NCBI RefSeq assembly: GCF_006716745.1
Contig: NZ_VFPP01000001.1
Span: forward strand, 5,155,386-5,219,385
Length of the DNA stretch: 64,000 nt
Direction: 5' to 3'
Origin: Saccharothrix saharensis
GTDB taxonomy: Bacteria; Actinomycetota; Actinomycetes; Mycobacteriales; Pseudonocardiaceae
A program made the position numbers and the translations under genes. This document shows, piece after piece, positions 9,934 to 42,885 of the stretch. A model generated the notes under the pieces. The model did not search any database. It had not been told where the DNA came from and saw only the letters and a program-made list of their open reading frames with translations. The stretch's first letter is position 1; each line of letters starts with the position of its first letter.

Positions 9934-12900
9934 CTAGGCGCAGGGGTCCTTCCCGGCGTTGACGACGGCCAGGTCCTCCGGCGGCGACGTCTTGCCCGGC
10001 TCGCCGCCCGCCGCCTGCGGTGCGCGGGTCTCCTCGTCCCAGCCGGGCCCGATCAGCAACTGCACCGCGCCGCCCATGTTCGCCTGGAACTGCAGCGTCG
10101 CGCCGGGCACCGAGGACTGCAGCGTCGCCGCCGCGTCCTCCGCGCCGATGCCGTACAGGATCACGGTCTTCTCGGCGGGCGGCGCGTCACCGGGGATGAC
10201 GACGTCGTAACCGAGTTCCCGCAACGCGTCCGTGGCCCGACGGGCCGCGCCGCCGTTGTCCGGGTCACCGTTGCGCACCTGGATCTTGATGCCCTTGTGG
10301 TCGATGATCCTGCCCTGCTTCGGACCCGGCGGCGGCGCGGACGCCTGCGTCGGCTGGGCCTGGTTCGGGTCGGCCGGGGTGTTGTCCGGCGTCTCCTCGG
10401 GCAGCGGCGTGCCGTCGATGATCGCCTGGAACAACGCCTTGGTGTCCGCTTCCTTCAACAGCTCCAGGTTGTCGTCGTTGGACAGCGTCTCGCCCTCGGA
10501 CGTCTCGTGCGGGATGGTGATGAAGGTGACCCGGCCCGCTTCGAGGCTGCGCAACGACTGCGCCAGCGTCAGCATGTCGTTCACGCCGATGTTCTGGCCG
10601 ACGGTCGAGGAGGCGAACGCGTTGAGGAACGCGTTGAGCTTGCCCGGGTTCAGCAGGATCTCCGACGACAACGCCTTGCGCAGCAACGAGGACAGGAACT
10701 GCTGCTGCCGGTTGACCCGGTCGTAGTCGGTCTTGTCCTCGCCCGAGACCTTGCGGGCGCGCACGTAATCCAGCGCCTTGGTGCCGTTGACCTCGAACCG
10801 GCCCGCCTGGTCGAAGATCACGCCGAGCTCGTCGTCCTTCATCGGCTTCGGCACGCACACCGGAACGGTGCCGATGGCGTCGACCATGCCCTTGAAGCCG
10901 TTGAAGTCGACGCTGATGAAGTGGTTGATCTCCAGGCCGGTCAGCTCGGTCATGAACTTGCTGACGCACTTGGGCCCGCCGACCGCGTACGGCTCGTTGG
11001 CCTTCACGTCCTCTTCGGCGTCGAGCTGCTCGCCGGTGTACTGGCCGGTGGAGGGATCCCACCGCTCGCACTGCGGGCGCTTGATGAGCAGGTCGCGCGG
11101 CACGGAGACGACGACCATGCGCTTACGGTCGGCGGGGATGTGCGCGAGCATCAGCACGTCCGAGCGCGCGCCCGGCTCGAAGTTGGCGTCGCCGACGCCG
11201 TCCTGCGGCTTGGCGCCCGCCCGGGTGTCCGAGCCGACGATGAGGAAGTTCTCGTCGCCGAGCTGCTTCTCCGCCTCGTGCACCGCGGCGGAGTTGGTGT
11301 TCAGCGCGTCGATCTCGGTGAACTTGCTGTCGATGTAGAACATCGCGCCCCAGCCGAGGCCGGTGGACACGAACACCAGCACCGCGGCGGCCAGCGACAC
11401 GACCTTGACCGTGCGCACGATCTTGCTGTGCTTGGCGGTGCGGCCGCGGCGGCGCGGGCCTTCGTCGTCGGGGGCGTCGACCGGTGAGGCGTACTCGGTG
11501 GCGTCCTCGTCGTGGTCGGCCTTCCACGGCATGAGCTTCTGGCGGCGTTCCTTGCGCAGGCGTTCCTGCTCGGCCAGCTCGTCGTGGACGGCGGAGAAGC
11601 GGGCCAGGGTGTGGTCGACCTCGCGACGTTTCTTGACGTCGTCGCTGATGGCCTCCATCTCCGTGGTGAGGCTGGCCGGGTCGATGGCCTCGCGCGGCTC
11701 GGGGCTCGCGCCGCCGCCGAGGCGGTCGGCGATGACGGGTGCCGCGTCGGGCACGACGACGTCGCCGTCGTCGGCGAACCTGCGACCGGTCACGTCACCG
11801 ACGGGCCGCGGGCCGCTGCCGTCCGCGGGACCGTCCGCGAGGCGACGCGGGCCGCTGCCGTCCACCGGGGGCACCGGCGGGCCGTCGGCGAGGCGGCGGG
11901 GACCGTCCACCGGGGGTGCGGGGGGTCCGTCGGCCAGGCGACGTGGGCCGTCGACCGGGGGTGCGGGTGGTCCGTCCGCCAGGCGACGGGGACCGTCGAC
12001 CGCGGGTGGGCCGTCGGCGAGCCGCCGAGGGCCGTCCACCGGTGGGCCGTCGGCCAGGCGGCGCGGGCCGTCGACCGGGGGTGCGGGAGGTCCGTCGGCG
12101 AGGCGGCGCGGGCCGTCGGGCGGCGCGATCGGGGGGGCCGGGGGTCCGTCGGCGAGCCGACGCGGGCCGCTGCCGTCGGGACGGCGGCCGACCGGGTCCT
12201 CACCGGGCGCACCGGGTGCCGGGCGGCGCGGGTCGGCGGGTGCTTCGGGGCGCGGTCGGCGGCCGGTGCCGGGTCCGCCGGTCAGGTCGTGCGGGCCGCT
12301 GCCGGTGGCCGGCGGGCCGGGGTGGGGCCGTCGGCCGGTGTGCTCACCGGGACGCGGCCCGTCCGCGAGCCGCCGCCCGGTGCCGTCGGCCGGCGCGCCT
12401 TCGGCGACCCGGCGTCCGGGCGGTGCGAGGTCGTCCGGCCGGCGGCGCGGTCCGCTGCCGTCGGGCACGCGCCGGGACGCGTCCGGGGCGAGGGCCTGCG
12501 GGCCTTCCGCCGGGCGGCGGGGCGCGTTCTCGGGCCGTTGACGGGGTCCGCTGCCGTCCGGCACGCGCCGTGGCGCGTCGGGAGCCAGGTCGTCGGGACG
12601 ACGGCGTTGCCCGGTGCTCTCGGCGACCCGGCCGGGGCCATCCGGTGTGAGGTCTTCGGGCCGGCGGCGCGGTCCGCTGCCGTCGGGCACGCGCCGGGAC
12701 GCGTCGGGGGCGAGGCCTTCCGGGCGGGGCGCGGCGGGGTCGGGGTGCCGTCGGCCGGGGTGCGGACGCCGGCCGGTGCCGTCGGCGGGCCGGGGCGGTG
12801 CGGCCGGGTCCTGCGGTGCGCGCGGGACGTCCGGGCCGGGGCGGCCGTTGGCGGGGATGCGCCTGCTCGGCTCGCCCGGCCGCGGTGCGAGGTCGTCCGG

Positions 12901-15090: not shown

Positions 15091-16231
15091 CCGAGTGCAG
15101 CTCGTCGGCGCCCACCGGCACGGTGGCGTCCTCCGGGTCGTCCAGCCAGCCGTCGGGCAGCACGACCTTGCCGGGCGAGCCCTGCCGGCCGCGCGGTTCG
15201 TCGGCGTTGTCCGGGAACGGGAGGTCCGGGTCGAGCCGGCCGACCAGGTCGTCCAGCTCGGCGAGCGTGGAGACCATGGCCAGCGCGCGCCGCAGCTCCG
15301 CGCCGACCGGGAAGCCCTTCAGGTACCAGGACACGTGCTTGCGCAGGTCACGCAGCCCTTTGTCCTCGCCCAGGAAGTCGGCGAGCAGGGCACCGTGGCG
15401 GCGCAGCACCTCCCCGACCTGACCCAGCCGCGGCCCCTCCGGGATGGGCTCGCCCCGGAACGCGGCCTGCAGCTCGCCGAACAGCCACGGCCGCCCCAGG
15501 CAGCCGCGCCCGACGACCACGCCGTCGCACCCGGTCCTCGCGACCATGTTTAGGGCGTCGCGGGCGCTGAAGATGTCGCCGTTGCCGAGCACGGGGATGC
15601 TGGTCACGGCCTCCTTCAGGCGGGCGATGGCGGACCAGTCGGCCTGGCCGGAGTAGCGCTGGGCGGCGGTGCGCGCGTGCAGGGCGACGGCTCGCGCGCC
15701 CTCGTCCTCGGCGATGCGGCCCGCGTCCAGGTAGGTGAGGTGGTCGTCGTCGATGCCGATGCGGAACTTGACCGTCACCGGCACCCCGGCGGGCTCGGCG
15801 GCCCGTACCGCGGCCCGGACGATCTGCCGGAACAGCTGGCGCTTGTACGGCAGGGCCGCGCCGCCGCCCTTGCGCGTCACCTTGGGCACGGGGCAGCCGA
15901 AGTTCATGTCGATGTGGTCGGCCCGGTCCTCGGCGACGATGATCCTCGCGGCTTCGGCCATGGACTTCGGGTCCACGCCGTAGAGCTGCATCGAGCGGGG
16001 GTTCTCGCCCTCGCCGAAGGTGATCATCTGCATCGTCTTGGCGTCGCGTTCGACGATGGCGCGGGCCGTGATCATCTCGCAGACGTAGAGCGAGGTCGGG
16101 CTGCCGAACTCGCGGCACAGCTGCCGGAAGGCCACGTTCGTGATGCCGGCCATGGGGGCGAGCACGACGGCGGGATCGACCGGGTACCGGCCGATCGTCA
16201 GGGGCTTGGTGGCGTGCAGGGCGGTGGACAT
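15083..16231 (-). CDS. dusB: tRNA-dihydrouridine synthase DusB-like
   Basis: Dus TIM-barrel motifs (LAPMAGITN, DMNFGCP, VTVKFRIG). Start assigned to internal ATG MSTALHATK; the 437-aa ORF adds a junk N-extension. Positional equivalent of Mtb Rv0823c. Confidence 0.8.
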   Translation of the reverse strand: MSTALHATKPLTIGRYPVDPAVVLAPMAGITNVAFRQLCREFGSPTSLYVCEMITARAIVERDAKTMQMITFGEGENPRSMQLYGVDPKSMAEAARIIVAEDRADHIDMNFGCPVPKVTRKGGGAALPYKRQLFRQIVRAAVRAAEPAGVPVTVKFRIGIDDDHLTYLDAGRIAEDEGARAVALHARTAAQRYSGQADWSAIARLKEAVTSIPVLGNGDIFSARDALNMVARTGCDGVVVGRGCLGRPWLFGELQAAFRGEPIPEGPRLGQVGEVLRRHGALLADFLGEDKGLRDLRKHVSWYLKGFPVGAELRRALAMVSTLAELDDLVGRLDPDLPFPDNADEPRGRQGSPGKVVLPDGWLDDPEDATVPVGADELHSGG

Positions 16232-16459
16232 CGCCGTCCATTGTCGCCCAGCCCCGGTAGTGGTGGGCGCCACATCACCGAACGGACCGCACCCGCCACG
16301 CCGGCTCCGGCTCGTGGCCGCGAGCACGCGGTCCGGGGCGAGGTGGGCGACGAGACCCCCGAGCACGGCCGCGTCCGCCATGGCCGGCGCCCGCACGTGG
16401 CGCTTCGCACGTCACAGGCGGTCCACCTGGGGAGCGCGCTGGAGGTCGACCAGCCCGGG

Positions 16460-16945
16460 TCAGCGCCGCACCACCCAGTCGTGGCAGCGCATCCAGCGGC
16501 CCGGCGGGTACTCGAAGTCGACTTCGCCGAGCAGCGTGAAGCCCGCCTTGCGGCACACCGCGTTGGACGCCGGGTGGTCCACCGACGGGAACGCGTGCAC
16601 CGACCGCCGACCGCCCTCGACCGGCGCGGCCGCCACCGTCGCCCGTGCCGCCACCGAGGCCACCCCGCGACCCTGGAACTCCGGCAGCACGCTCCACCCG
16701 ACCTCCCAGACCTCCTCGTCGCGCCACGTCCGGCCCCAGTACCCGATGCTGCCCGCGGGAACCCCGTCGACCTCGACCCGGAACATCCGACCGTCGCCGA
16801 GCAGGAGGTAGCGCCGGTGCCGGTCGGTCACCCGGTCGTCGGGTTCCGGGCCGCCGAGGTGGTCGGTCAGCTCCGGCGCGTTCAGCCGGCGCAACAACCC
16901 GAGGTCGCCCTCGGACCACGGCCGCAGGTCGATGTGCGGGGTCAT
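16460..16945 (-). CDS. GNAT family N-acetyltransferase
   Basis: Start at MTPHIDLRPW. GNAT-like core (..VGWSVLPEFQGRGVASVAARA..). Confidence 0.5.
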   Translation of the reverse strand: MTPHIDLRPWSEGDLGLLRRLNAPELTDHLGGPEPDDRVTDRHRRYLLLGDGRMFRVEVDGVPAGSIGYWGRTWRDEEVWEVGWSVLPEFQGRGVASVAARATVAAAPVEGGRRSVHAFPSVDHPASNAVCRKAGFTLLGEVDFEYPPGRWMRCHDWVVRR

Positions 16946-17546: not shown

Positions 17547-17589
17547 CGAGTTTGGTGGGCCGCCAGGGACTCGAACCCTGAACCCGAAG
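17547..17589. repeat. att-like direct repeat (partial 3' copy of tRNA-Lys)
   Basis: Identical to 26331-26373. Not a complete tRNA. Confidence 0.7.
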
Positions 17590-18053
17590 GTTGTAAATCT
17601 TGCTCGCTTGACGTCTGCCAATATTGTCCGTCGTCTGCTGCCACCTGCAGAATTTTCAATCGTGAACCGCCACTGTGTATAGATCGATGCGGTGCTCTAT
17701 CGTCGTTAGTTAGGGGTAACTGAGGGGCCTAACCCTGCTGCGGACATCGTCCGTCGCGTCCACTGCCTACCCTTTGACGTGTCGTCCACCTTCGTCTCGA
17801 CCTCTTAGATAGCAAGGTTATCGCTATCCGTTTTGTGATCAAACGACGATGAAGGTAGCTTGTGAACCACTGACCTGTGATGGTCTAGCGTAGGCGCGCA
17901 GTGGATATGAATCGTCCTCAAGTTGAAGACCGTGGATCTCTATCGACAAGTCTCGACAGTTCGTTACCAGGCGGGCGAATTGTTATGAGTTGTTGACAGT
18001 TCAAGCGTCTTGCCGAACACACGTTCGAATACGGGTAACGTGCTACACCCGAT

Positions 18054-20558
18054 GTGATGACATGTGTGCATCTGTGTGGCGATCTATCATTAAAGGTCAA
18101 TGAAAGCACAACCAGGGGAACGCCGTTGACCCAAGTATCAGAGCCCGGAAGTCCCGTAGCCTACGTACAGGTAGAGATTGATTATGCAATCTTGCAGCAC
18201 TTCTCGCAGCACCTGTACTCGTCGCCAAACAAGGCCGTCGAAGAGCTAGTCACTAATGGCTACGACGCATTGGCCATGAAGGTGAACGTCTTCCTTCCGG
18301 GATCCTCTGCTCGGGATTGCGTTCTTGTGTGGGATGACGGCGACTCCATGGATCTCGACGGAATACGTCAGTTGTGGTGGATTGCGCGCAGCCCAAAAAA
18401 CGATGGAACTGCGAGGGTCGCACGATCTGCTGCTCGGGGAATCGAAAGAGCAATGATCGGCAAGTTCGGCATCGGCAAGCTCGCAAGCTACGCTCTCGGG
18501 GACAGAATATCGCACCTTTGCCACCGAGAAGGCCGATACTACCTTATCGCAGTGTCGTATGGGCAGGCGCCGAAGACCGACCCTGGCGATGCGTCCCCCA
18601 GGAAGGGGTTCGAAGTCCCAGTCCTGGAGCTGTCCGAGGAAAGCGCTAAGACTTTCACCAAGAGTCTGTATAGGACGGTTCCTAGCAACTTTAATGAGCT
18701 GTGGTCTCAACCGTCATGGACGCTGGCTATTATCGACGAACTTAAGGAAGAAGTCAATCTTACTCCTGGCCGTTTGCGCTGGGTGCTGGGCAACGGCATG
18801 CCGAGCAGGCCAGATTTCAAGGCGTTTGTTAACCAGGTAGAGGTTACGCCCAAAATTGAGCAGGGAGCTCTAGCCACATGGGACGCCTCTGATAAAGGAA
18901 TCAAGGAGCGACTTAAAGCTGAGTGGGATGAGGCAAAGAAGGCAGGACGTGTCACGGGCGATATAGAATTTACCAAGAAGGGCGATCACCCTGTTGTGGT
19001 AATGCCACACCTTGGCGATGTCCGTTTGCGAGTTAAGCTATTCGATAGATCTCTGTTTCAGAAGGACCGATCCGAATCCGGAAGAAGTGAAGGCTTCTTC
19101 GTGATGGTTCGAGACCGTCTGCTGAACCCGGACGATCCGAAGCTTTTCTTGCACGACCCGTCGTACGGCGCGTTCAACCGGATGCAGATTTTCATTTGGG
19201 CTGATGGCCTAGATAGTGACCTTCTCGCCGACCGTGAACGTTTGCATCGTTTGGCACCAACTGGGGTAGAACTTGAAATATTACAAGTTGCCCTATATCG
19301 AGCCGGCCGCAATAAGCTAACTGCGACAGAATCTCACGCCAGGCTTGAGTCACGTGTAGCGGAACTCCCCATTATTGCTCGGGAGTACCTTAGGGATCCA
19401 CTTACAGCGCTGATTATGAACGAGCCGGGGGGTGATCTGACTGCCGTTAACCCTAGTGAAACTCGCATGACAATTGAAGCAAGAGGTTCGAAATCCCCTT
19501 TGTCTAGCCTAGACGTAGCGGAAAATCGCATCGTTACTAATATCGACCATCCGATGTACGTGACAATGCTGGAGACTTTTGGTCGCAGTAGAAGGAGTCA
19601 AGAGGCACAGAAGCTTGTAGAGATGTTCGCGGTGGCAGACCTTTTGCTCAAAGGCAGGCTCCTCGACCTCGGTGTCGACATCGACATCGTCGACAATGTA
19701 ATGAAATGGCGTGAAGCGCAATTGCGTTCGTTGCAAGCGGGCTTCAAGCAGAGCCCGGATGTAATTATTAAGGAAGTTATCGACACAAGCTACAAAGGTC
19801 ACAAGCCATTCGAACAGGCTTTGGCTAAGTTGTTCCAACTGATGGGTTTCTACGCTGAAATCGATGGCGCATCGGGCAAAAAAGATGTCTTGGTTATTGC
19901 ACCTGTCGGTGAAGAAGAGAAGCGATTCACCGTAGAAGCCAAAGGCTCGAAGAAGTCATTGGCGAACGACGACGCTGAAATCAGTGGCGCAGCCGCTCAT
20001 GCTATAGAGGTAGACGCTCTTTTTAGCGTCGTTGTTGCTCGTGAATTCGCGGGATTTGCGCGGCTACCCGAAGGCGAGGAGCCAGCCATCCTGAAGGAGT
20101 GCAGAGCGCAGAAAGTCGATGTATCAATCATCACGGTAGACGCGCTGGTTGATCTATATGAGGCGGTCAAGCGTCACCAATACCCTCTACCTATGATTTC
20201 TGATACGTTGGCCGAAATATGCTCCCCTGAAGAAAAAAGGCGTCGCATAGCGGAAATGCGTAACCCGCTTACAGCCAACTTTGATTGGCGTGACGTCTTC
20301 GATGAACTATGGAGCATGCAGCAGGGAACGGCTAGTAGAGAGCCGGTCTCTACCTTGGCACTTCGACAAGCACGGCCTGAGTGGAAAGCAATGTCCCGGG
20401 AGTCTTTTGACCAAGTGCTAGTTGGCCTTGACTCTCTGTCAGGTGGCCTACTGAAGGTTACAACGTCTCAGCACACGGTGAATCTGCTGCAAGCACCAGA
20501 TCTAGTCGCGGCAAGGATCGCTGCTTCTGTCGAAGGAAATCCGGATAAGAAGTCGTGA
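18054..20558 (+). CDS. GHKL-family ATPase (MORC/MutL-like Bergerat fold) fused to a C-terminal Mrr-like PD-(D/E)xK nuclease domain
   Basis: N-box ELVTNGYDA, G1 box DDGDSMDLDG, G2 box GKFGIGKLASYALG. C-terminal region FEQALAKLFQLMGFYAEIDGASGKKDVLVIAPVGEEEKRFTVEAKGSKK is arranged like the Mrr catalytic domain (D...ExK). Low-GC gene, 834 aa. Confidence 0.6.
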   Translation: MMTCVHLCGDLSLKVNESTTRGTPLTQVSEPGSPVAYVQVEIDYAILQHFSQHLYSSPNKAVEELVTNGYDALAMKVNVFLPGSSARDCVLVWDDGDSMDLDGIRQLWWIARSPKNDGTARVARSAARGIERAMIGKFGIGKLASYALGDRISHLCHREGRYYLIAVSYGQAPKTDPGDASPRKGFEVPVLELSEESAKTFTKSLYRTVPSNFNELWSQPSWTLAIIDELKEEVNLTPGRLRWVLGNGMPSRPDFKAFVNQVEVTPKIEQGALATWDASDKGIKERLKAEWDEAKKAGRVTGDIEFTKKGDHPVVVMPHLGDVRLRVKLFDRSLFQKDRSESGRSEGFFVMVRDRLLNPDDPKLFLHDPSYGAFNRMQIFIWADGLDSDLLADRERLHRLAPTGVELEILQVALYRAGRNKLTATESHARLESRVAELPIIAREYLRDPLTALIMNEPGGDLTAVNPSETRMTIEARGSKSPLSSLDVAENRIVTNIDHPMYVTMLETFGRSRRSQEAQKLVEMFAVADLLLKGRLLDLGVDIDIVDNVMKWREAQLRSLQAGFKQSPDVIIKEVIDTSYKGHKPFEQALAKLFQLMGFYAEIDGASGKKDVLVIAPVGEEEKRFTVEAKGSKKSLANDDAEISGAAAHAIEVDALFSVVVAREFAGFARLPEGEEPAILKECRAQKVDVSIITVDALVDLYEAVKRHQYPLPMISDTLAEICSPEEKRRRIAEMRNPLTANFDWRDVFDELWSMQQGTASREPVSTLALRQARPEWKAMSRESFDQVLVGLDSLSGGLLKVTTSQHTVNLLQAPDLVAARIAASVEGNPDKKS

Positions 20559-20614
20559 TACATCTGTTGCCACCTATGTGGTGGACTGCGTGACGATGAC
20601 GATAAGATCACGTA

Positions 20615-21673
20615 GTGACCGCTACAGCGCCTACCGCAGTTGACTTGTTCGCCGGAGCCGGAGGGGCAACTCAAGGACTCCGAGATGCTGGCTTCAACGT
20701 AGTAGGAGCTGTGGAGTTCGATCCAGAAGCGTCTCGGTCTTACCGTCTGAATCACCCAAGAACTCGGCTTTGGCAATCTGATATACGATCGTTGCCAGCA
20801 GAACGGATGCGCATTGAACTAGGCTTGCGCATTCGTGAACTGACTCTCTTGAAGGCATGCCCGCCGTGTCAGGGATTTTCATCCCTTGCGGGTGGGCGAA
20901 GCATGGATGAAACGCGTAATGATCTAGTTCACCAAGTGGTGCGGTTCACTAGGGCTTTCATGCCTAAGGCTATTCTGCTAGAAAATGTTCCAGGTTTGGC
21001 GCGTGATAGACGGTTTACTGAATTGACCGAGAAGCTGAGCAAGCTTGGATACTCGTTCGGTAGTTACAAATTGAATGCCACAGTCTTCGGTGTTCCTCAG
21101 CGCCGAAACCGATTGGTTGTTCTCGGCATTAGAAGCCGGAAGGCGGTTATCTCTTCCGATATTTGGGAGATTCTGGGTCAGGGTTATGCGCCTGTCGCTC
21201 TTACTGCAGGCGAGGCTTTGCAAAATTTGTACAGCTTGGCTCGCAAGAATGACCCGCTCAATCGTCATCGTTCACTGTCGAAATCTACTGCCGAACGAGT
21301 GAAGGCGATTCCAGTCGGTGGTACGCGATTTGACCTGCCTCCGGAGCATCGTCTCCGCTGCCATAACGAAGTGGACAGTAAGGGGGGGCATCGAGCAACA
21401 GCCTCATACGGTCGAGTAAAGCTCGACCTACCAGCACCTACTATGACGACGCGCTGTACGACGCCTGCATGTGGTTCTTTCATTCACCCTATTGAAAATC
21501 GCGGCCTGACCTTGCGCGAAGCGGCATACTTCCAAACTTTTCCCGTAACGTATGACTTTCTGGGCTCTTACGAGTCGATCGAGCGCCAGATAGGAAATGC
21601 TGTCCCAGTTGAAATGGCTAAATATCTCGGGATTGCTGTGCTTAAGTCAGTACGTAGGGCTCGGTTGCTCTAA
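20615..21673 (+). CDS. dcm: DNA (cytosine-5)-methyltransferase
   Basis: Motif I DLFAGAGG, motif IV PCQGFS, motif VI ENVPGL, C-terminal QIGNAVPV. 352 aa. Low GC. Confidence 0.85.
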   Translation: MTATAPTAVDLFAGAGGATQGLRDAGFNVVGAVEFDPEASRSYRLNHPRTRLWQSDIRSLPAERMRIELGLRIRELTLLKACPPCQGFSSLAGGRSMDETRNDLVHQVVRFTRAFMPKAILLENVPGLARDRRFTELTEKLSKLGYSFGSYKLNATVFGVPQRRNRLVVLGIRSRKAVISSDIWEILGQGYAPVALTAGEALQNLYSLARKNDPLNRHRSLSKSTAERVKAIPVGGTRFDLPPEHRLRCHNEVDSKGGHRATASYGRVKLDLPAPTMTTRCTTPACGSFIHPIENRGLTLREAAYFQTFPVTYDFLGSYESIERQIGNAVPVEMAKYLGIAVLKSVRRARLL

Positions 21674-22120
21674 TTGCACGTTGGCAAGGCTGTGGGCTGG
21701 TCGATGCCGTCAGGCGTCGAGCTGTCCACAGGCGCGGCAGCCGAGCGCCATAACCACGCGGCCGAGTCGACCACCGCGCGCTCGTCTCAAGCCCTGAGGC
21801 CGGAAGTATCGTCGTCGAGCAGATGGGTAGATCTGTTCAAGCGGTTCTCTGGGGGCACTGGCCGTGGCCTCCGGCTGTTGTGGGCAGGTTTCGGTGCCTC
21901 GCGTGTCGCGCCCGTGGGCCGCCAGGCCCACTTGGCGCGACCGAAGACATCGCCGGAGCCTGCCCACAACAGCCCGCAAGGGCACGAACGGCCAGCGGCC
22001 CCGGAGGGGGCCGCCTTGATGAAGAAAAGAAACTCTGAACACCGTGGTCAGGCTGCCTCGGTGTCCGCTGGAGTTGATGCCACTGTCGCGTGGTGGGCGG
22101 TGATGGCGTAGGAGTAGGGC

Positions 22121-22768
22121 ATGGTCGCTGCCGTGGTGTTTGACGTGGGTGAGACGTTGCTGGATGACTCGCGGGAGTGGGGGGCATGGGCGGATTGGAT
22201 CGGGGTGTCTCGGCACACGTTCTCGACGGTGCTCGGGGCGGTGACAGCGGCAGGGCGGGATAACGCGGAGACGTTCCAGTACTTCCGGCCTGGGTTCGAT
22301 GTGGCTCAAGAGCGGCAGCTTCGGGAGCGGGCTGGGGTGGGTGAGCGCATCGAGGATCGGGACTTGTACCCGGATGTGCGGATCGGGCTGGCTCGGCTGC
22401 GGGAGGTCGGGCTATGGGTTGGGGTGGCGGGGAACCAGACTGCTCGGGCGGCGGAGTTGCTGCGGGGGTTGAGGTTGCCGGTGGATGGGTTGGCGACGTC
22501 TGGTGAGTGGGGTGTGGCCAAGCCTGCGGCGGAGTTCTTCGAGCGGGTGGTGGGGATGACGCCTGCGGTGGTGGCTGGTGATGTGCTCTACGTCGGTGAT
22601 CACCGGGACAACGATGTTGTGGCGGCGAAGGCGGCTGGGTTGCGTACGGCGCTGATCCGGCGTGGACCTTGGGGATACCTGTGGGCGGATGACCCGTTGG
22701 TGCGTCGGGACGCCGACTGGGTCATCGACTCACTGCACGACCTGCCGGAGCTGCTGGCGAACGGCTGA
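22121..22768 (+). CDS. HAD-superfamily hydrolase
   Basis: Motif I VVFDVGETLLD, Lys motif VAKP, motif IV GDHRDND. Confidence 0.6.
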   Translation: MVAAVVFDVGETLLDDSREWGAWADWIGVSRHTFSTVLGAVTAAGRDNAETFQYFRPGFDVAQERQLRERAGVGERIEDRDLYPDVRIGLARLREVGLWVGVAGNQTARAAELLRGLRLPVDGLATSGEWGVAKPAAEFFERVVGMTPAVVAGDVLYVGDHRDNDVVAAKAAGLRTALIRRGPWGYLWADDPLVRRDADWVIDSLHDLPELLANG

Positions 22769-22779
22769 GGCGTAGCCGC

Positions 22780-24240
22780 TCAGCGAGCGCCTGCCCAGGC
22801 GGCCAGGTCGAGTAGGCCGGAACTGAGTGACGGGTGGGTGCGTAGCAGCACGGACAGGGCTTGGCGGACCTGTGGATGGGCGCGCACGTGTTCAGGTGCG
22901 GCTTGGCGGGCGGCCTGCAAGCACATGTAGGCGTCTTCGTGGCGGCCGAGGTCGAGTTGGGCGCGGGCCAAGTCGATGTAGTAGTGCGAGCGGCGTTCGG
23001 CGGGTAGTTCGGCGGGCGGGTGCCAGGTGGAGGCTCGTTGGATGCCTGCGGCGTCTCGTAGCTCGGCGGCAACGGCCAGCTCGTGGATGCGCAGAGACGC
23101 GGGGCCGAAGGCGGTGCCGTGGTAGATGCCTTCGGGTGCGGCGTGGGCGGCGTAGCGGGCGGTGAGCAGGTGGTCGGCGGCGATGTCGGCTTTGCCTGCT
23201 CGGGCGGCGACGACCGCGGCTCGCATGTGGAGTGCGCCGAAGGCGGCTGCGGTGGGTGCCTGTTTCAGGTCGCGGGTCGGGAGTTGGTCGGCGGCGTGGT
23301 CCAGGGCGCGGGCGGCGGTGTGGAGGTCGCCGCTGGCGAAGAACGTTTCGGTGCGCACGTAGGCGACTGCGGCGAACAGTAGTGGGTTGTCGGCCTCGGT
23401 TGCTGTTGTGCGCATGAGGTCGATGAGGCGGGCCGACAGGTCGAAGTAGCGGTACTTGTAGGCCACGCCATCGGCGGCGCGTAGGGCCAGGGTCAGCAGG
23501 GATGCGACGTGGCGGCGGTCGGCTGGGTCGAGGAGTTGGCGGGCTCGGGCAAGTTCGCCGATTAGGGCGGGTAGGTGGCGGACGAGTTCGCCTTAGCGGG
23601 CTTCGAGCCGGTGGTTGTTCATGCGGGCGACGTCGGCGGCCAGCTCGGGAAGGCTTCGCGTCGGGCCGTCGTCGGGTAGGTCGAGGATGTCGAGCGCGCG
23701 GCGTAGGCGTGGGATGCCGACCTGCACGATGTCCAGCTCTTGAGCTGGTTGGGGTGGTGGCTGATCGGCCGGTGCCCACGACTGGTGGGGCGAGTAGGCC
23801 GGGCTCGGGTCGACGGTGCGGCCGGCGTAGAGGTTGCGGACGTCGTGGACTTCGCGCGCGGTGCCGTCGAACCATCGGAGGTGGCGCGGGACGTGGAGGG
23901 CGTCGCACCAGCGTTCGAGGCGTTCGAGGTCGGTGACCGGGCGGCGGGAGCGTTCGACTTCGCTGACGCGGCCTTGGGTGAGGTCGAGCCAGACGGCGAG
24001 GGTGGCTTGGGGGACGGTCGGGTTCTGGGCCTGGCGGTAGGCGCGGAAGACCTGGCCGATGTTGCGGGACTCGAACGCCTCGCGGATGGTGGGCTTGGCC
24101 CAGAACTCCGGCGGCAGCGTCGGGGCGTGGAGCGTAGAAGCCGCGGTGCAGCGGCCACAAAGTTCGCCCCGGTTGTCCTTGGCCAGCAAGGTGTCACACG
24201 TGCGGCAGCGTCGCTTGGACGTGGTCACGTGGTCGTTCAC
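22780..24240 (-). pseudogene. XRE-family HTH regulator (actinomycete ~450-aa type) interrupted by an in-frame TAA
   Basis: N-terminal part 24240-23596 carries the HTH (TLAVWLDLTQGRVSEVER). TAA at 23593-23595. The same frame continues through 23466-22780 with the C-terminal helical domain. Confidence 0.55.
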
Positions 24241-24383
24241 CCCTTGGTCGAGCTGTGCCTACTTCGGAGTGTAACTCGCCGATTACGGTGCTGAGCTGCG
24301 GTTAGTGGTGACGGCGATCTTCGATCAGTCATTGGTATGGGATCGGCGTTGCGTCCGAGTGAATCTGGTCGAGCAAGTCCCAG

Positions 24384-25186: not shown

Positions 25187-25585
25187 TCAGTGATCGGCTG
25201 AGTCGGGTTGAGGCTCGGCTGGCGTGGTCCCGAGAATCTCAGCCTCGACAGCGGCGACGCGCCGGCTGAGGTCGTCCAGGACCGTGTTGATGCGGTCGAA
25301 CATCTGCCGAAGCTCATGCGGTGAGGGCACGTCGTCCCCCGCATGGGCTTCGGGCTTCTTCACCACGATCGTGCCTTCGCCCTGGCGGGAGATGACCAGT
25401 CCTTCGTTGCGGAGCTGGTCCAGTGCCTTCTGCAACGTCATCACGGCGCGGCCGTACTTGGTCTGAAGCTCGGTCAGGGACGGGAGCTTGTCGCCGACCT
25501 CGACCTCGTCGGACGCGATGTAGTGGCGCAGGTCGTCTGCGATCTGCTGGTACGCAGGTCGGCGATCGGTTGCGTCTGGGCGCAT
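25187..25585 (-). CDS. GntR-family winged-helix transcriptional regulator (KorSA-like position in an integrative element)
   Basis: HTH region LPSLTELQTKYGRAVMTLQKALDQLRNEGLV. 132 aa. Confidence 0.6.
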   Translation of the reverse strand: MRPDATDRRPAYQQIADDLRHYIASDEVEVGDKLPSLTELQTKYGRAVMTLQKALDQLRNEGLVISRQGEGTIVVKKPEAHAGDDVPSPHELRQMFDRINTVLDDLSRRVAAVEAEILGTTPAEPQPDSADH

Positions 25586-25660: not shown

Positions 25661-26275
25661 CTATGTGCTTCGACCGCGGTTGAGGTTGTCGACCTGCTCA
25701 AGAAGCGGGACCAGGACGAGCAGGCCGTCAAGGACGACCTGCCGGACCTCGTCCGGTTCTTCCTGGGCACCGGAGAACGGACCGAGGAGGCACTGGGCGC
25801 GTACTGGCCTGACTTCAACGAAGAGGCGCGGGAACTGGCCATGTCTGGCAACGTCATCCGCGCACGCGGTCGAGGCCGGGTCGTGAATCGGGGCAAGACG
25901 GAGAATGCTGAACGACCGATCCCGCTGCCGGACTGGTGCGTCGTCATGCTGGTGGGGAGGCGCTCGAAGGCTTCGGACCTCGACGGCCCGATCTTCCCCA
26001 GCTCGACCGGCACGATTCGTGAGGCTACGAACGTCCGCAATCGCGCGTGGAAGCCGTTCATCACCCGGGCCGGGTACGAATGGGTGACTTTCCGAACCTT
26101 TCGGAGGACCGTCGCCACGCTGCTGGACGAGGCGGGTCTGACGGCCCGGCAGATCGCCGACCTGCTCGGTCACTCGCGGCCGTCGATGACGCAGGACGTG
26201 TACATGGGCCGCAGGTCACCCGGTCGGGCGGCGGCGGACGCGCTGGGAGCAGTCATCACCGTAAGTGAGGGGTAA
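25661..26275 (+). pseudogene. int: tyrosine recombinase/integrase, 5'-truncated (C-terminal catalytic domain only)
   Basis: In-frame stretch after the TAG at 25658-25660 contains box I (FLGTGERTEEAL) and box II (HSRPSMTQDVYMGRR). Only ~205 codons remain; the N-terminal arm-binding and core-binding domains are absent. Confidence 0.65.
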
Positions 26276-26330
26276 ACGGGGGATCCGACTCCGCTGAACC
26301 CTGGTCCAACCGCTGGACCAGCGAGTTTGG

Positions 26331-26373
26331 TGGGCCGCCAGGGACTCGAACCCTGAACCCGAAGATTAAAAGT
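26331..26373. repeat. att-like direct repeat overlapping the 3' end of intact tRNA-Lys
   Basis: Identical to 17547-17589. Confidence 0.7.
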
Positions 26374-26412
26374 CTCCTGCTCTGCCAATTGAGCTAGCAG
26401 CCCGTGCTCGAC
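26337..26412 (-). tRNA. tRNA-Lys (anticodon UUU), CCA encoded
   Basis: Cloverleaf derived by hand: acceptor GGGCTGC/GCGGCCC, D-arm GCTCAATTGGCAGAGC, anticodon stem GGAGA/TCTTC with loop CTTTTAA, T-arm CAGGGTTCGAGTCCCTG. Confidence 0.85.
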
Positions 26413-42590: not shown

Positions 42591-42663
42591 GTCCCCATCG
42601 TCTAGCGGCCTAGGACCCCGCCCTTTCAAGGCGGTAGCGCGGGTTCGAATCCCGTTGGGGGCA
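42591..42663 (+). tRNA. tRNA-Glu (anticodon UUC)
   Basis: Acceptor GTCCCCA/TGGGGGC; anticodon stem-loop CCGCC-CTTTCAA-GGCGG; T-arm GCGGGTTCGAATCCCGT. Confidence 0.85.
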
Positions 42664-42699
42664 CGTAGTACAGTGAGACAGCAAGGCAGAAGTGAGCAA

Positions 42700-42773
42700 G
42701 GCCCAGTGGCGCAGTTGGTTAGCGCGTCGCCCTGTCACGGCGAAGGTCGCGGGTTCGAGTCCCGTCTGGGTCG
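42700..42773 (+). tRNA. tRNA-Asp (anticodon GUC)
   Basis: GGCCCAGTGGCGCAGTTGGTTAGCGCG-TCGCC-CTGTCAC-GGCGA-AGGTC-GCGGGTTCGAGTCCCGT-CTGGGTCG. Confidence 0.85.
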
Positions 42774-42808
42774 CAAGGCAGTTCGGCCGGTTGGTCGAGC
42801 CGCTACCT

Positions 42809-42885
42809 GGCCAGGTAGCTCAGTTGGTACGAGCGACCGCCTGAAAAGCGGTAGGTCGGCGGTTCGACCCCGCCCCTGGCCACCA
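42809..42885 (+). tRNA. tRNA-Phe (anticodon GAA), CCA encoded
   Basis: GGCCAGGTAGCTCAGTTGGTACGAGCG-ACCGC-CTGAAAA-GCGGT-AGGTC-GGCGGTTCGACCCCGCC-CCTGGCCACCA. Confidence 0.85.

Follow-up and report, generated by a model that had tools for sequence, protein, structure and literature searches.

A GHKL ATPase–nuclease fusion beside a C5-cytosine methyltransferase in Saccharothrix saharensis: a candidate restriction–modification system on a tRNA-Lys island

The genome of Saccharothrix saharensis contains a gene for a large protein, with an ATPase at its N-terminus and what looks like a nuclease at its C-terminus, followed directly by a gene for a DNA methyltransferase (MTase). Does this pair constitute a restriction–modification (R–M) system, and if so, what would a restriction enzyme do with such an ATPase? 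The role of the ATPase in fusions of this kind is a long-standing question, as is that of the C-terminal domain of HgiDII; we know of no demonstration of what the ATPase contributes, nor of any biochemical characterization of the kind. GHKL ATPase–restriction nuclease fusions have figured in REBASE-based surveys since 2008. The initial annotation of the locus was right to treat them as computational predictions of that year; they were catalogued then in R–M systems, and the S. saharensis enzyme therefore joins a known and widespread but biochemically uncharacterized kind. We favour, with a probability of roughly 0.6, a two-gene R–M system brought in as a low-GC cassette of 4 kb within an 8.8-kb element integrated at tRNA-Lys. 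The features of the locus are collected in Table 1. Coordinates are those of the window, the whole stretch of 64,000 nucleotides that was analysed, and residues of the nuclease protein are numbered from the ATG at 18057.

Table 1. Features of the S. saharensis cassette and of the island that carries it.
Feature	Position	Strand	Basis or remark
Border of the island, 43-nt copy of the 3' end of tRNA-Lys	17547..17589	-	Exact 43-nt repeat
Putative restriction endonuclease gene	18054..20558	+	ORF list and translation; longest ORF 834 aa, start probably at TTG 18126 (~810 aa)
GHKL (Bergerat-fold) ATPase domain, aa ~30-235	18144..18761	+	Pfam HATPase_c_3 and invariant motifs
S5-like transducer domain (predicted), aa ~236-400	18762..19256	+	Foldseek to MORC2/3/4 ATPase modules; R343, R354 and N357 invariant
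Long-helix linker with small beta subdomain (predicted), aa ~401-565	19257..19751	+	AF2 secondary structure
PD-(D/E)xK nuclease domain (predicted), aa ~566-720	19752..20216	+	Structure prediction; catalytic E586, D610, E627, K629
C-terminal winged-helix domain (predicted), aa ~721-826	20217..20534	+	Candidate DNA-binding or recognition element
C5-cytosine DNA methyltransferase, 352 aa	20615..21673	+	PF00145, TIGR00675, PADLOC MTase_II; FxGxG, PC, ENV and QRR motifs
Conserved long hairpin, right edge of shared cassette	21858..22043		Identity and folding
Truncated tyrosine integrase that retains just its C-terminal catalytic domain	25841..26275	+	PF00589
tRNA-Lys(UUU) gene (26328-26403) and second 43-nt repeat (26322-26364)	26322..26403	-	ARAGORN, Rfam

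The large protein was first described as having 834 aa. The reading frame is real and of that maximal length, but the protein itself is probably shorter. Because coding conservation with relatives begins at about position 18117 and a Shine–Dalgarno-like AGGGGA lies 6 nt upstream of the TTG at 18126, this TTG is the probable start codon, which would give a protein of ~810 aa. The public annotation, with a start at 18192 and 788 aa, omits one conserved, confidently modelled strand.

The claim of a complete N-terminal Bergerat-fold ATPase is well founded. The motifs ELVTNGYDA, DDGDSMDLDG and GKFGIGKLASYALG are all present in the translation, HATPase_c_3 (PF13589) matches aa 56–169 with 42.5 bits against a Pfam cutoff of 25, and the same family is matched by 51 of 51 aligned relatives. 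Profile and motifs, the latter comprising an N-box (ExxxNxxD), a DxGxG-like G1 and a GxxGxG G2, place the protein by sequence in the GHKL ATPase superfamily. Residues E62, E63, N67 and D70 of the N-box, D93 and G95 of G1, G135, G138, G140 and K141 of G2, and T222 do not vary across 74 relatives, of which 21 are close and 53 distant, and those for ATP binding and hydrolysis stay invariant down to 25% overall identity. The second glycine of G1 is a serine in the branch of the S. saharensis protein and either glycine or serine in the distant branch. Because the E-D-(E/D)xK residues of the nuclease are invariant in the same relatives along with those of the ATPase, both activities are probably under selection.

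Between the ATPase and the nuclease lie a transducer and a helical region that the initial annotation did not mention. In Foldseek searches with the predicted AF2 model (pLDDT 83.9), the ATPase cassettes of MORC2, MORC3 and MORC4 align over 410–530 columns (E 1.8e-12 and weaker, probability 1.00), and the modelled order, a GHKL domain and then an S5-fold transducer, is that of MORC and paraMORC proteins (Iyer et al. 2008). MORCs are set apart from paraMORCs by a MORC-specific sequence motif (PMC2292703). Crystal and cryo-EM structures of these eukaryotic MORCs are the best fold for the first ~450–500 residues, although MORC ATPases have only 12–15% sequence identity to the S. saharensis protein. 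The CW and coiled-coil chromatin-reader domains of MORCs are absent from it, whereas MORCs have neither a nuclease domain nor an MTase partner. The AF2 model of the linker has helices at 401–432, 439–455, 512–537 and 542–564 and strands within 470–495, and aa ~401–565 have no assigned family or fold.

The C-terminus had been read as an Mrr-like nuclease, and here the claim divides. The segments FEQALAKLFQLMGF, DVLVIAPVG and VEAKGSKK are present, and structure prediction, proposed at the outset as a check on this region, does yield a PD-(D/E)xK fold: aa 560–833 are modelled as a restriction-nuclease fold followed by a winged helix, the former with an alpha-beta-beta-beta-alpha-beta core and E…D…(D/E)xK catalytic residues in place. 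The specific resemblance to Mrr stands less firmly, as the protein itself has no match to Mrr_cat (PF04471) at E ≤ 0.01; the family is matched in Pfam by 29 of 51 homologous colinear relatives, with a best E of 4.3e-06. PDB sequence searches, run with the whole protein and with a C-terminal profile, returned Hsp90-type GHKL matches only and no nuclease, and for this reason structure prediction was called for. The best fold matches of the nuclease region are HindIII, FokI and BspD6I, with Mrr and the Mrr-like AF1548 being poorer structural matches than FokI and HindIII. Identity to the FokI and BspD6I cleavage domains and the HindIII catalytic core is 13–15%, and these enzymes have no ATPase. 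The winged helix, which the initial annotation did not include, follows the nuclease domain, whereas FokI carries its recognition domain on the N-terminal side of the cleavage domain.

The next gene was taken to encode a C5 methyltransferase, and the profiles agree: PF00145 matches aa 8–340 with 192 bits (cutoff 22), TIGR00675 matches with 159.9 bits (cutoff 100.65) and the PADLOC model MTase_II with 265 bits. These full-length matches above cutoff, with the motifs visible in the translation, assign it to the C5-cytosine DNA methyltransferases.

An R–M pairing predicts homologs that co-occur with methyltransferases, and the neighbourhoods bear this out. The endonuclease family is large, with at least 679 full-length relatives (counted as clusters of proteins) and, in species-representative genomes, no fewer than 465 loci, patchily distributed over bacterial and archaeal phyla. 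A C5-MTase, variable in side and orientation and at 26–85% identity, lies within 341 bp in 21 of 23 close loci; in distant loci the partner is an N6/N4 MTase (PF01555), within 200 bp in 48 of 57. Together, 69 of the 80 loci thus have an MTase of one class or the other as immediate neighbour; most of the remainder lie on truncated contigs or have a different MTase close by. Conservation of the nuclease gene beside an MTase gene is the arrangement of Type II-like R–M systems. Near-universal linkage, taken with the conserved catalytic residues, supports the restriction–modification reading, and the linkage disfavours a Type IV or a Shedu-like enzyme.

A Type IV enzyme, that is, a modification-dependent Mrr-like nuclease acting against foreign methylated DNA with the MTase functionally unrelated, is accordingly very improbable. 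Mrr has no cognate MTase, whereas an MTase beside nearly every member of the S. saharensis family is the hallmark of a partner that protects, with which a Type IV enzyme would clash. Nor was an SRA, EVE or PUA-type domain, or any other modified-base reader, found by Pfam or fold comparison, and the enzymes that supply the best folds are blocked by modification, so the protein does not have the features of the Mrr type.

A stand-alone Shedu-like nuclease of the paraMORC3 or VcSduA type, in which the GHKL domain would sense infection and the MTase would not be protective, follows a similar logic. VcSduA of Vibrio cholerae, for which a clamp-like dimer is predicted, needs both its ATPase and its nuclease residues for phage defence (PMC12137116), and paraMORC3/Shedu type I-D proteins likewise have a GHKL ATPase and a middle domain followed by a PD-(D/E)xK nuclease at the C-terminus (PMC2292703, PMC12137116). 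However, their nuclease is of the DUF4263 type, which has no Pfam match in the S. saharensis protein or in 51 relatives, and the Shedu models of PADLOC do not match the S. saharensis protein, which by sequence falls outside this group. As VcSduA-type proteins are encoded by stand-alone genes and the family described here almost always adjoins an MTase, we regard this explanation as highly unlikely.

The comparison with BbrUII and HgiDII is closer and bears on the role of the ATPase. This family is the best NCBIfam match, over the ATPase module, for every family member tested. Like the S. saharensis system, it combines an N-terminal GHKL module with a DNA methyltransferase partner. The equivalog model NF050001, whose cutoff is 550 bits, gives the S. 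saharensis protein 46.6 bits over profile positions 2–118 of 659, so that only the first ~120 residues align; relatives score 53–84 bits, and some match positions 5–369 (GHKL and transducer). At the curated cutoff the protein thus lies outside the family. The nearest relatives of the S. saharensis MTase (57–60% identity) nevertheless pair with full-length HgiDII-like proteins, in Micromonospora and Streptomyces, with which BLASTP aligns the N-terminal GHKL-containing region only. No fold was assigned to the C-terminal half of R.HgiDII (PMC2441816), whereas that of the S. saharensis protein is predicted to be a FokI/HindIII/Mrr-type PD-(D/E)xK domain with a winged helix. The R.VeiORF1182P subfamily, a putative Type II enzyme in REBASE with a GHKL N-terminus and a PD-(D/E)XK C-terminus (PMC2441816), shows the same two-part architecture and is also a putative restriction enzyme, a computational entry compared here by description.

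REBASE files R.HgiDII among the orthodox Type IIP (subtype P) enzymes (PMC2441816) and, by analogy, the GHKL module may for that reason not be needed for cleavage itself. The pair could then be a classical Type IIP-like system cleaving with Mg2+ only, its GHKL domain serving as a structural dimerization or regulatory appendage that, for example, delays restriction in a new host. That the closest named family has the same kind of N-terminal module, and that the MTase linkage is that of ordinary Type II systems, earn this explanation a real though minor share of belief. Against it, E63, N67, D70, D93, G95, the G2 box and T222 would not be expected to remain invariant down to 25% identity in a purely structural domain.

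In the R–M system that we prefer, the C5 methyltransferase would mark host copies of the target sequence and the large protein would be the restriction enzyme, its PD-(D/E)xK domain cutting unmarked DNA. Contact with DNA would likely fall to the neighbouring winged helix, perhaps together with the middle region. The N-terminal MORC-like GHKL and transducer module would most likely follow the mechanism of MutL, MORC and Hsp90: on binding ATP, the N-termini would dimerize and close a clamp round the DNA, the clamp would pair two single-site nuclease domains and so license double-strand cleavage, and ATP hydrolysis would reset the enzyme. The analysis itself shows what the domains are, that their catalytic residues are conserved, that an MTase is linked almost universally and that the cassette has moved. 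For the S. saharensis enzyme we infer cleavage and ATP use, and with them methylation protection, ATP-controlled dimerization or clamping, and the choice of the domain that reads the sequence.

No hypervariable specificity block was found across the nuclease family. For an enzyme that matches the specificity of its MTase, the lack of a block tracking such different partners is odd. A bolder proposal, which we hold tentatively and think rather less than even in likelihood, is a distinct class of restriction enzyme in which a MORC-type ATP-driven DNA clamp licenses a FokI-like nuclease, with recognition loose or modular enough to accommodate C5, N4/N6 and divergent MTases. If such a class exists, it would be the simplest bacterial model of how a MORC ATPase engages DNA. 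Among bacterial proteins, the ATPase module of this family comes closest in fold to the eukaryotic MORCs, and its biochemistry could show how a MORC clamp couples ATP to DNA. The family suits the question of what the ATPase is for, being large, with a single polypeptide, a two-gene context, a confident predicted structure and clear point mutants.

The target sequence is not readable from named homologs of the MTase, since 120 of its 120 best matches carry generic names. Kinship with HgiDII and BbrUII, together with one locus (L027) that adjoins a XamI-type R–M system, gives a weak hint of GTCGAC. PADLOC returned one weak N-terminal match to a REase_II model and no named defence system. No controller protein was found, and a scan for promoters and terminators revealed neither a clear promoter nor any enrichment relative to shuffled sequences.

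The surroundings point to a mobile origin. The cassette is ~4 kb long, has a GC content of 50–55% against 72%, and sits inside an 8.8-kb island bounded by the 43-nt tRNA-Lys repeats; the direct repeat of the tRNA 3' end and the recombinase beside the tRNA gene identify a tRNA-integrated genomic island. The integrase matches positions 57–166 of the 172 of PF00589, with only ~190 aa open in frame, and because it is truncated the island is probably no longer mobile. A sister species shares only 18014–22053, and the cassette is absent there from the same locus. It is hardly credible in this setting that the protein is a sensor kinase or, as a paralogue of MutL or MORC, a housekeeping factor of DNA repair or chromatin; the initial annotation had named a histidine-kinase or MutL paralogue in a housekeeping context among the findings that would overturn its reading. 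Relatives do give weak NCBIfam matches to MutL and Hsp90 across the GHKL domain, but the location in an island, the low-GC cassette missing from the sister locus, the patchy spread over phyla, the predicted restriction-type nuclease and the absence of any Pfam histidine-kinase dimerization or phosphoacceptor domain from the protein all speak against it. For the S. saharensis genome, the system is nothing out of the ordinary, a cassette for defence or addiction gained by horizontal transfer. Across 20 related loci the tRNA and island context shows no common pattern, and the idea of an element backbone common to the Micromonospora and Streptomyces loci found no support, the MTase alone being shared.

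A Vsr or controller function was weighed for an ORF at 21674–22111, 3' of the MTase gene, but this ORF matches no family, overlaps the hairpin and is probably not a gene. The hairpin has no match in Rfam at either the gathering threshold or a permissive one. It is 89% identical to its counterpart in Actinosynnema (L002), above the identity of the coding regions, and folds with a minimum free energy of -128 kcal/mol (z -7.2) and 65 conserved pairs, two of them compensatory.

The window has a GC content of ~72%, against 50–55% at 17.5–21.75 kb, where the sole long open reading frames (ORFs) are those of a large protein and of a methyltransferase (MTase), together the cassette. The initial annotation had described the pair as a fusion of a GHKL ATPase and an Mrr-like nuclease beside a C5-cytosine MTase, and all of the motifs it quoted are present in the two translations. 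The Bergerat-fold ATPase was recovered in the large protein by a Pfam search (HATPase_c_3), and the second ORF matched DNA_methylase (PF00145) at 192 bits, its Dcm type being confirmed by NCBIfam. The proposed length of 834 aa for the large protein holds for the maximal ORF but not for the gene start, conservation with relatives beginning near 18117. The public record of the identical protein from Saccharothrix saharensis, labelled ‘ATP-binding protein’, starts at 18192 (788 aa) and drops an N-terminal strand that is conserved in the family and of high confidence in the structural model. A TTG codon at 18126 is preceded by AGGGGA 6 nt upstream, and a gene start near 18126 suits the evidence better than the annotated one.

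The AlphaFold2 model of the large protein, for which 51 full-length relatives were aligned (mean column identity 44%, few indels), has a mean pLDDT of 83.9. In Foldseek searches with this model, the closest folds to residues ~30–400 were the MORC2/3/4 ATPase cassettes (GHKL plus S5) of human and mouse (E ~1e-12), with Hsp90/TRAP1 second. Residues ~401–565 are modelled as long helices and a small beta subdomain to which no fold was assigned. FokI and HindIII independently took the top ranks for the nuclease region, with a probability of 1.00 but an E of only ~4e-3. In sequence, the large protein itself misses the Pfam profile Mrr_cat, whereas 29 of the 51 relatives match it. The catalytic residues E586, D610, E627 and K629 are placed on the expected helix and strands of the predicted structure. 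Both this E-D-(E/D)xK set and the residues for ATP binding and hydrolysis are invariant or nearly so across 74 full-length relatives (21 close, 53 distant). Since both sets are kept in these 74 proteins, selection acts on both of the predicted activities, ATPase and nuclease.

In species-representative genomes, relatives are encoded at no fewer than 465 loci, of which the best 80 were analysed. These form two branches, L001–L023 (identity ≥34%) and L024–L080 (25–31%). A C5-MTase lies ≤341 bp away in 21 of the 23 loci of the first branch, upstream or downstream and co-directional or convergent. These partners share 26% to 85% identity with the window MTase, intact genes encoding ~350 to 480 aa, and by this spread they are of several different kinds. 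In the second branch the place of the C5-MTase is taken, at 48 of 57 loci and ≤200 bp away, by an N6/N4-type MTase (PF01555) of ~390–460 aa, encoded on the same or occasionally the opposite strand. Stop and start codons of the two genes frequently overlap. Contig ends interrupt most of the loci that lack an MTase; at L015 and L058 the neighbourhood check found none beside the nuclease gene. The co-occurrence of homologs with MTases is therefore near-universal among the 80 loci, across two chemically different types of methylation. Such adjacency is the mark of a protective partner and speaks against both a methylation-dependent Type IV enzyme and a stand-alone Shedu-like nuclease. We put the probability that the cassette is a restriction–modification (R–M) system at roughly 85%.

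Some neighbourhoods are more elaborate. In a Bathyarchaeia locus (L027), one of those not counted above as MTase-linked, genes for a XamI-family restriction endonuclease (371 bits) and an MTase of Eco57I/N6 type come after the GHKL-nuclease gene, so one MTase may serve two nucleases. L064, one of the loci without an adjacent MTase, has a defence-island context, the neighbours of the nuclease being a HEPN_Swt1-DUF499 protein and a methylase-like DUF1156 protein. At L050 and L074, a second GHKL-domain gene, similar at its N-terminus only and adjoining a C5-MTase, sits beside the N6/N4-linked system; tandem arrangements of GHKL-type R–M systems can thus occur.

When the large protein and seven relatives were compared with NCBIfam, the BbrUII/HgiDII family of restriction enzymes (NF050001) came first in every case, at 46–84 bits against a cutoff of 550; the match spans the GHKL domain and extends over profile positions 5–369 in two members. 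The predicted ATPase module thus ranks as a sister to these enzymes, but the large protein stands outside their family. R.HgiDII consists of a GHKL domain and a C-terminal domain of unassigned fold, and among four further GHKL-containing REBASE subfamilies one, R.VeiORF1182P, has a PD-(D/E)XK C-terminus (Orlowski and Bujnicki, 2008, PMC2441816), the pairing also found in the large protein. MORC and paraMORC ATPases were placed in R–M neighbourhoods by Iyer, Abhiman and Aravind (2008, PMC2292703), paraMORC3 carrying a restriction-fold nuclease at its C-terminus. ParaMORC3 is now seen as a variant of Shedu (DUF4263), and phage defence by one member, VcSduA, requires both ATPase and nuclease residues (PMC12137116). 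In contrast, Pfam found no DUF4263 in the large protein or the 51 relatives, PADLOC found no Shedu match in the large protein, and the present family is MTase-linked whereas VcSduA is not. No open-access paper was found that reports biochemical work on a GHKL nuclease of this sort with a linked MTase. The family is large, and the cassette adds one instance to a biochemically uncharacterised kind that has been catalogued computationally since 2008; its interpretation as a candidate ATP-dependent restriction module is supported.

The window MTase has thousands of relatives by sequence search. The nearest outside the cassette (57–60% identity) are from Micromonospora (L081) and Streptomyces (L083), divergently paired with HATPase_c_3 proteins of 771 aa and 716 aa. 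These partners match NF050001 over positions 48–647 (L081, 252.4 bits) and 1–646 (L083, 243.9 bits) of 659, both below the cutoff, and their BLASTP alignment with the large protein is restricted to the N-terminal, GHKL-containing region. One m5C-MTase clade thus serves two GHKL-nuclease families with unlike C-terminal halves; the partners may represent an unnamed sister family of HgiDII-type enzymes, common in actinomycetes. XamI-type R–M systems, such as that at L027, have the specificity GTCGAC. HgiDII and BbrUII recognise the same sequence (PMC5867850), which makes GTCGAC a candidate target of the window system, though only as a hint. Despite widely differing partner MTases, the nuclease scaffold is colinear throughout the 51-sequence alignment, with no hypervariable block; either a target is common to many members or dispersed residues make the recognition.

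In the large protein, an intact MORC-like ATPase, a nuclease of the FokI/HindIII/Mrr type and a winged helix are joined in one polypeptide, an enzyme that is mobile and linked to an MTase. MutL, GyrB, Hsp90 and MORC dimerise N-terminally upon ATP binding, and FokI-type nucleases need dimerisation. From these two properties we infer that the enzyme would bind unmethylated target DNA, that ATP would shut the N-terminal gate, so that the DNA is clamped and two nuclease domains come together to cut both strands, and that hydrolysis would reset the enzyme; C5 methylation would block recognition of the site. An ATP-licensing step in cleavage has about an even chance, the main rival being that Mg2+ alone suffices for cutting, as in an orthodox Type IIP enzyme, with the ATPase reserved for regulation or assembly.

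Coordinates of features in the window and in loci of relatives (L numbers)
Feature	Sequence	Position	Strand
Large protein, maximal ORF	window	18054-20558	+
C5-MTase ORF	window	20615-21673	+
Island border repeats, exact 43 nt of tRNA-Lys(UUU) 3′ end	window	17547-17589; 26322-26364	
tRNA-Lys(UUU) gene with the second repeat	window	26322-26403	
HAD hydrolase, in island	window	22121-22768	
422-aa ORF	window	22892-24160	-
GntR regulator, in island	window	25187-25585	
Tyrosine integrase, beside tRNA-Lys; C-terminal catalytic ~190 aa left	window	25841-26275	+
Hairpin, right edge of shared cassette	window	21858-22043	
Hairpin	L001	~11760-11960	
Hairpin	L002	11909-12096	
GHKL nuclease, XamI-family, MTase genes	L027	7977-12943	
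Nuclease, DUF1156, HEPN_Swt1-DUF499 genes	L064	1755-7958	
Second GHKL-domain gene	L050	~15517-16939	
Second GHKL-domain gene	L074	~950-2318	
MTase and HATPase_c_3 pair	L081	2586-6074	
MTase and HATPase_c_3 pair	L083	2717-6029	

The sister species Saccharothrix tamanrassetensis has only 18014–22053 in common with the window (77% identity), the flanks being unrelated. The cassette lies inside an 8.8-kb island bounded by the tRNA-Lys repeats, which also holds further ORFs without family assignment. The integrase remnant retains its R...Y motifs but has lost its N-terminal half, so the island is probably immobilised. An Actinosynnema locus (L002) shares the cassette, the GntR region and the downstream hairpin, which is ~140 nt long with near-perfect pairing and has a short GC hairpin behind it. 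At 89%, hairpin identity across genera is above that of the genes; the fold z-score is -7, 65 of the pairs are conserved and 2 changes are compensatory. The hairpin matched no Rfam family and is single-copy in the window; possible roles are those of a small RNA, a terminator or a recombination site. GC skew within the island is unusually strongly positive at 22000–24300 (+0.26 to +0.42, 300-nt windows); the 422-aa ORF under this stretch, where several ORFs overlap, had no Pfam match. Elsewhere in the window, a tRNA-Glu, tRNA-Asp and tRNA-Phe cluster at 42591–42885 is ordinary.
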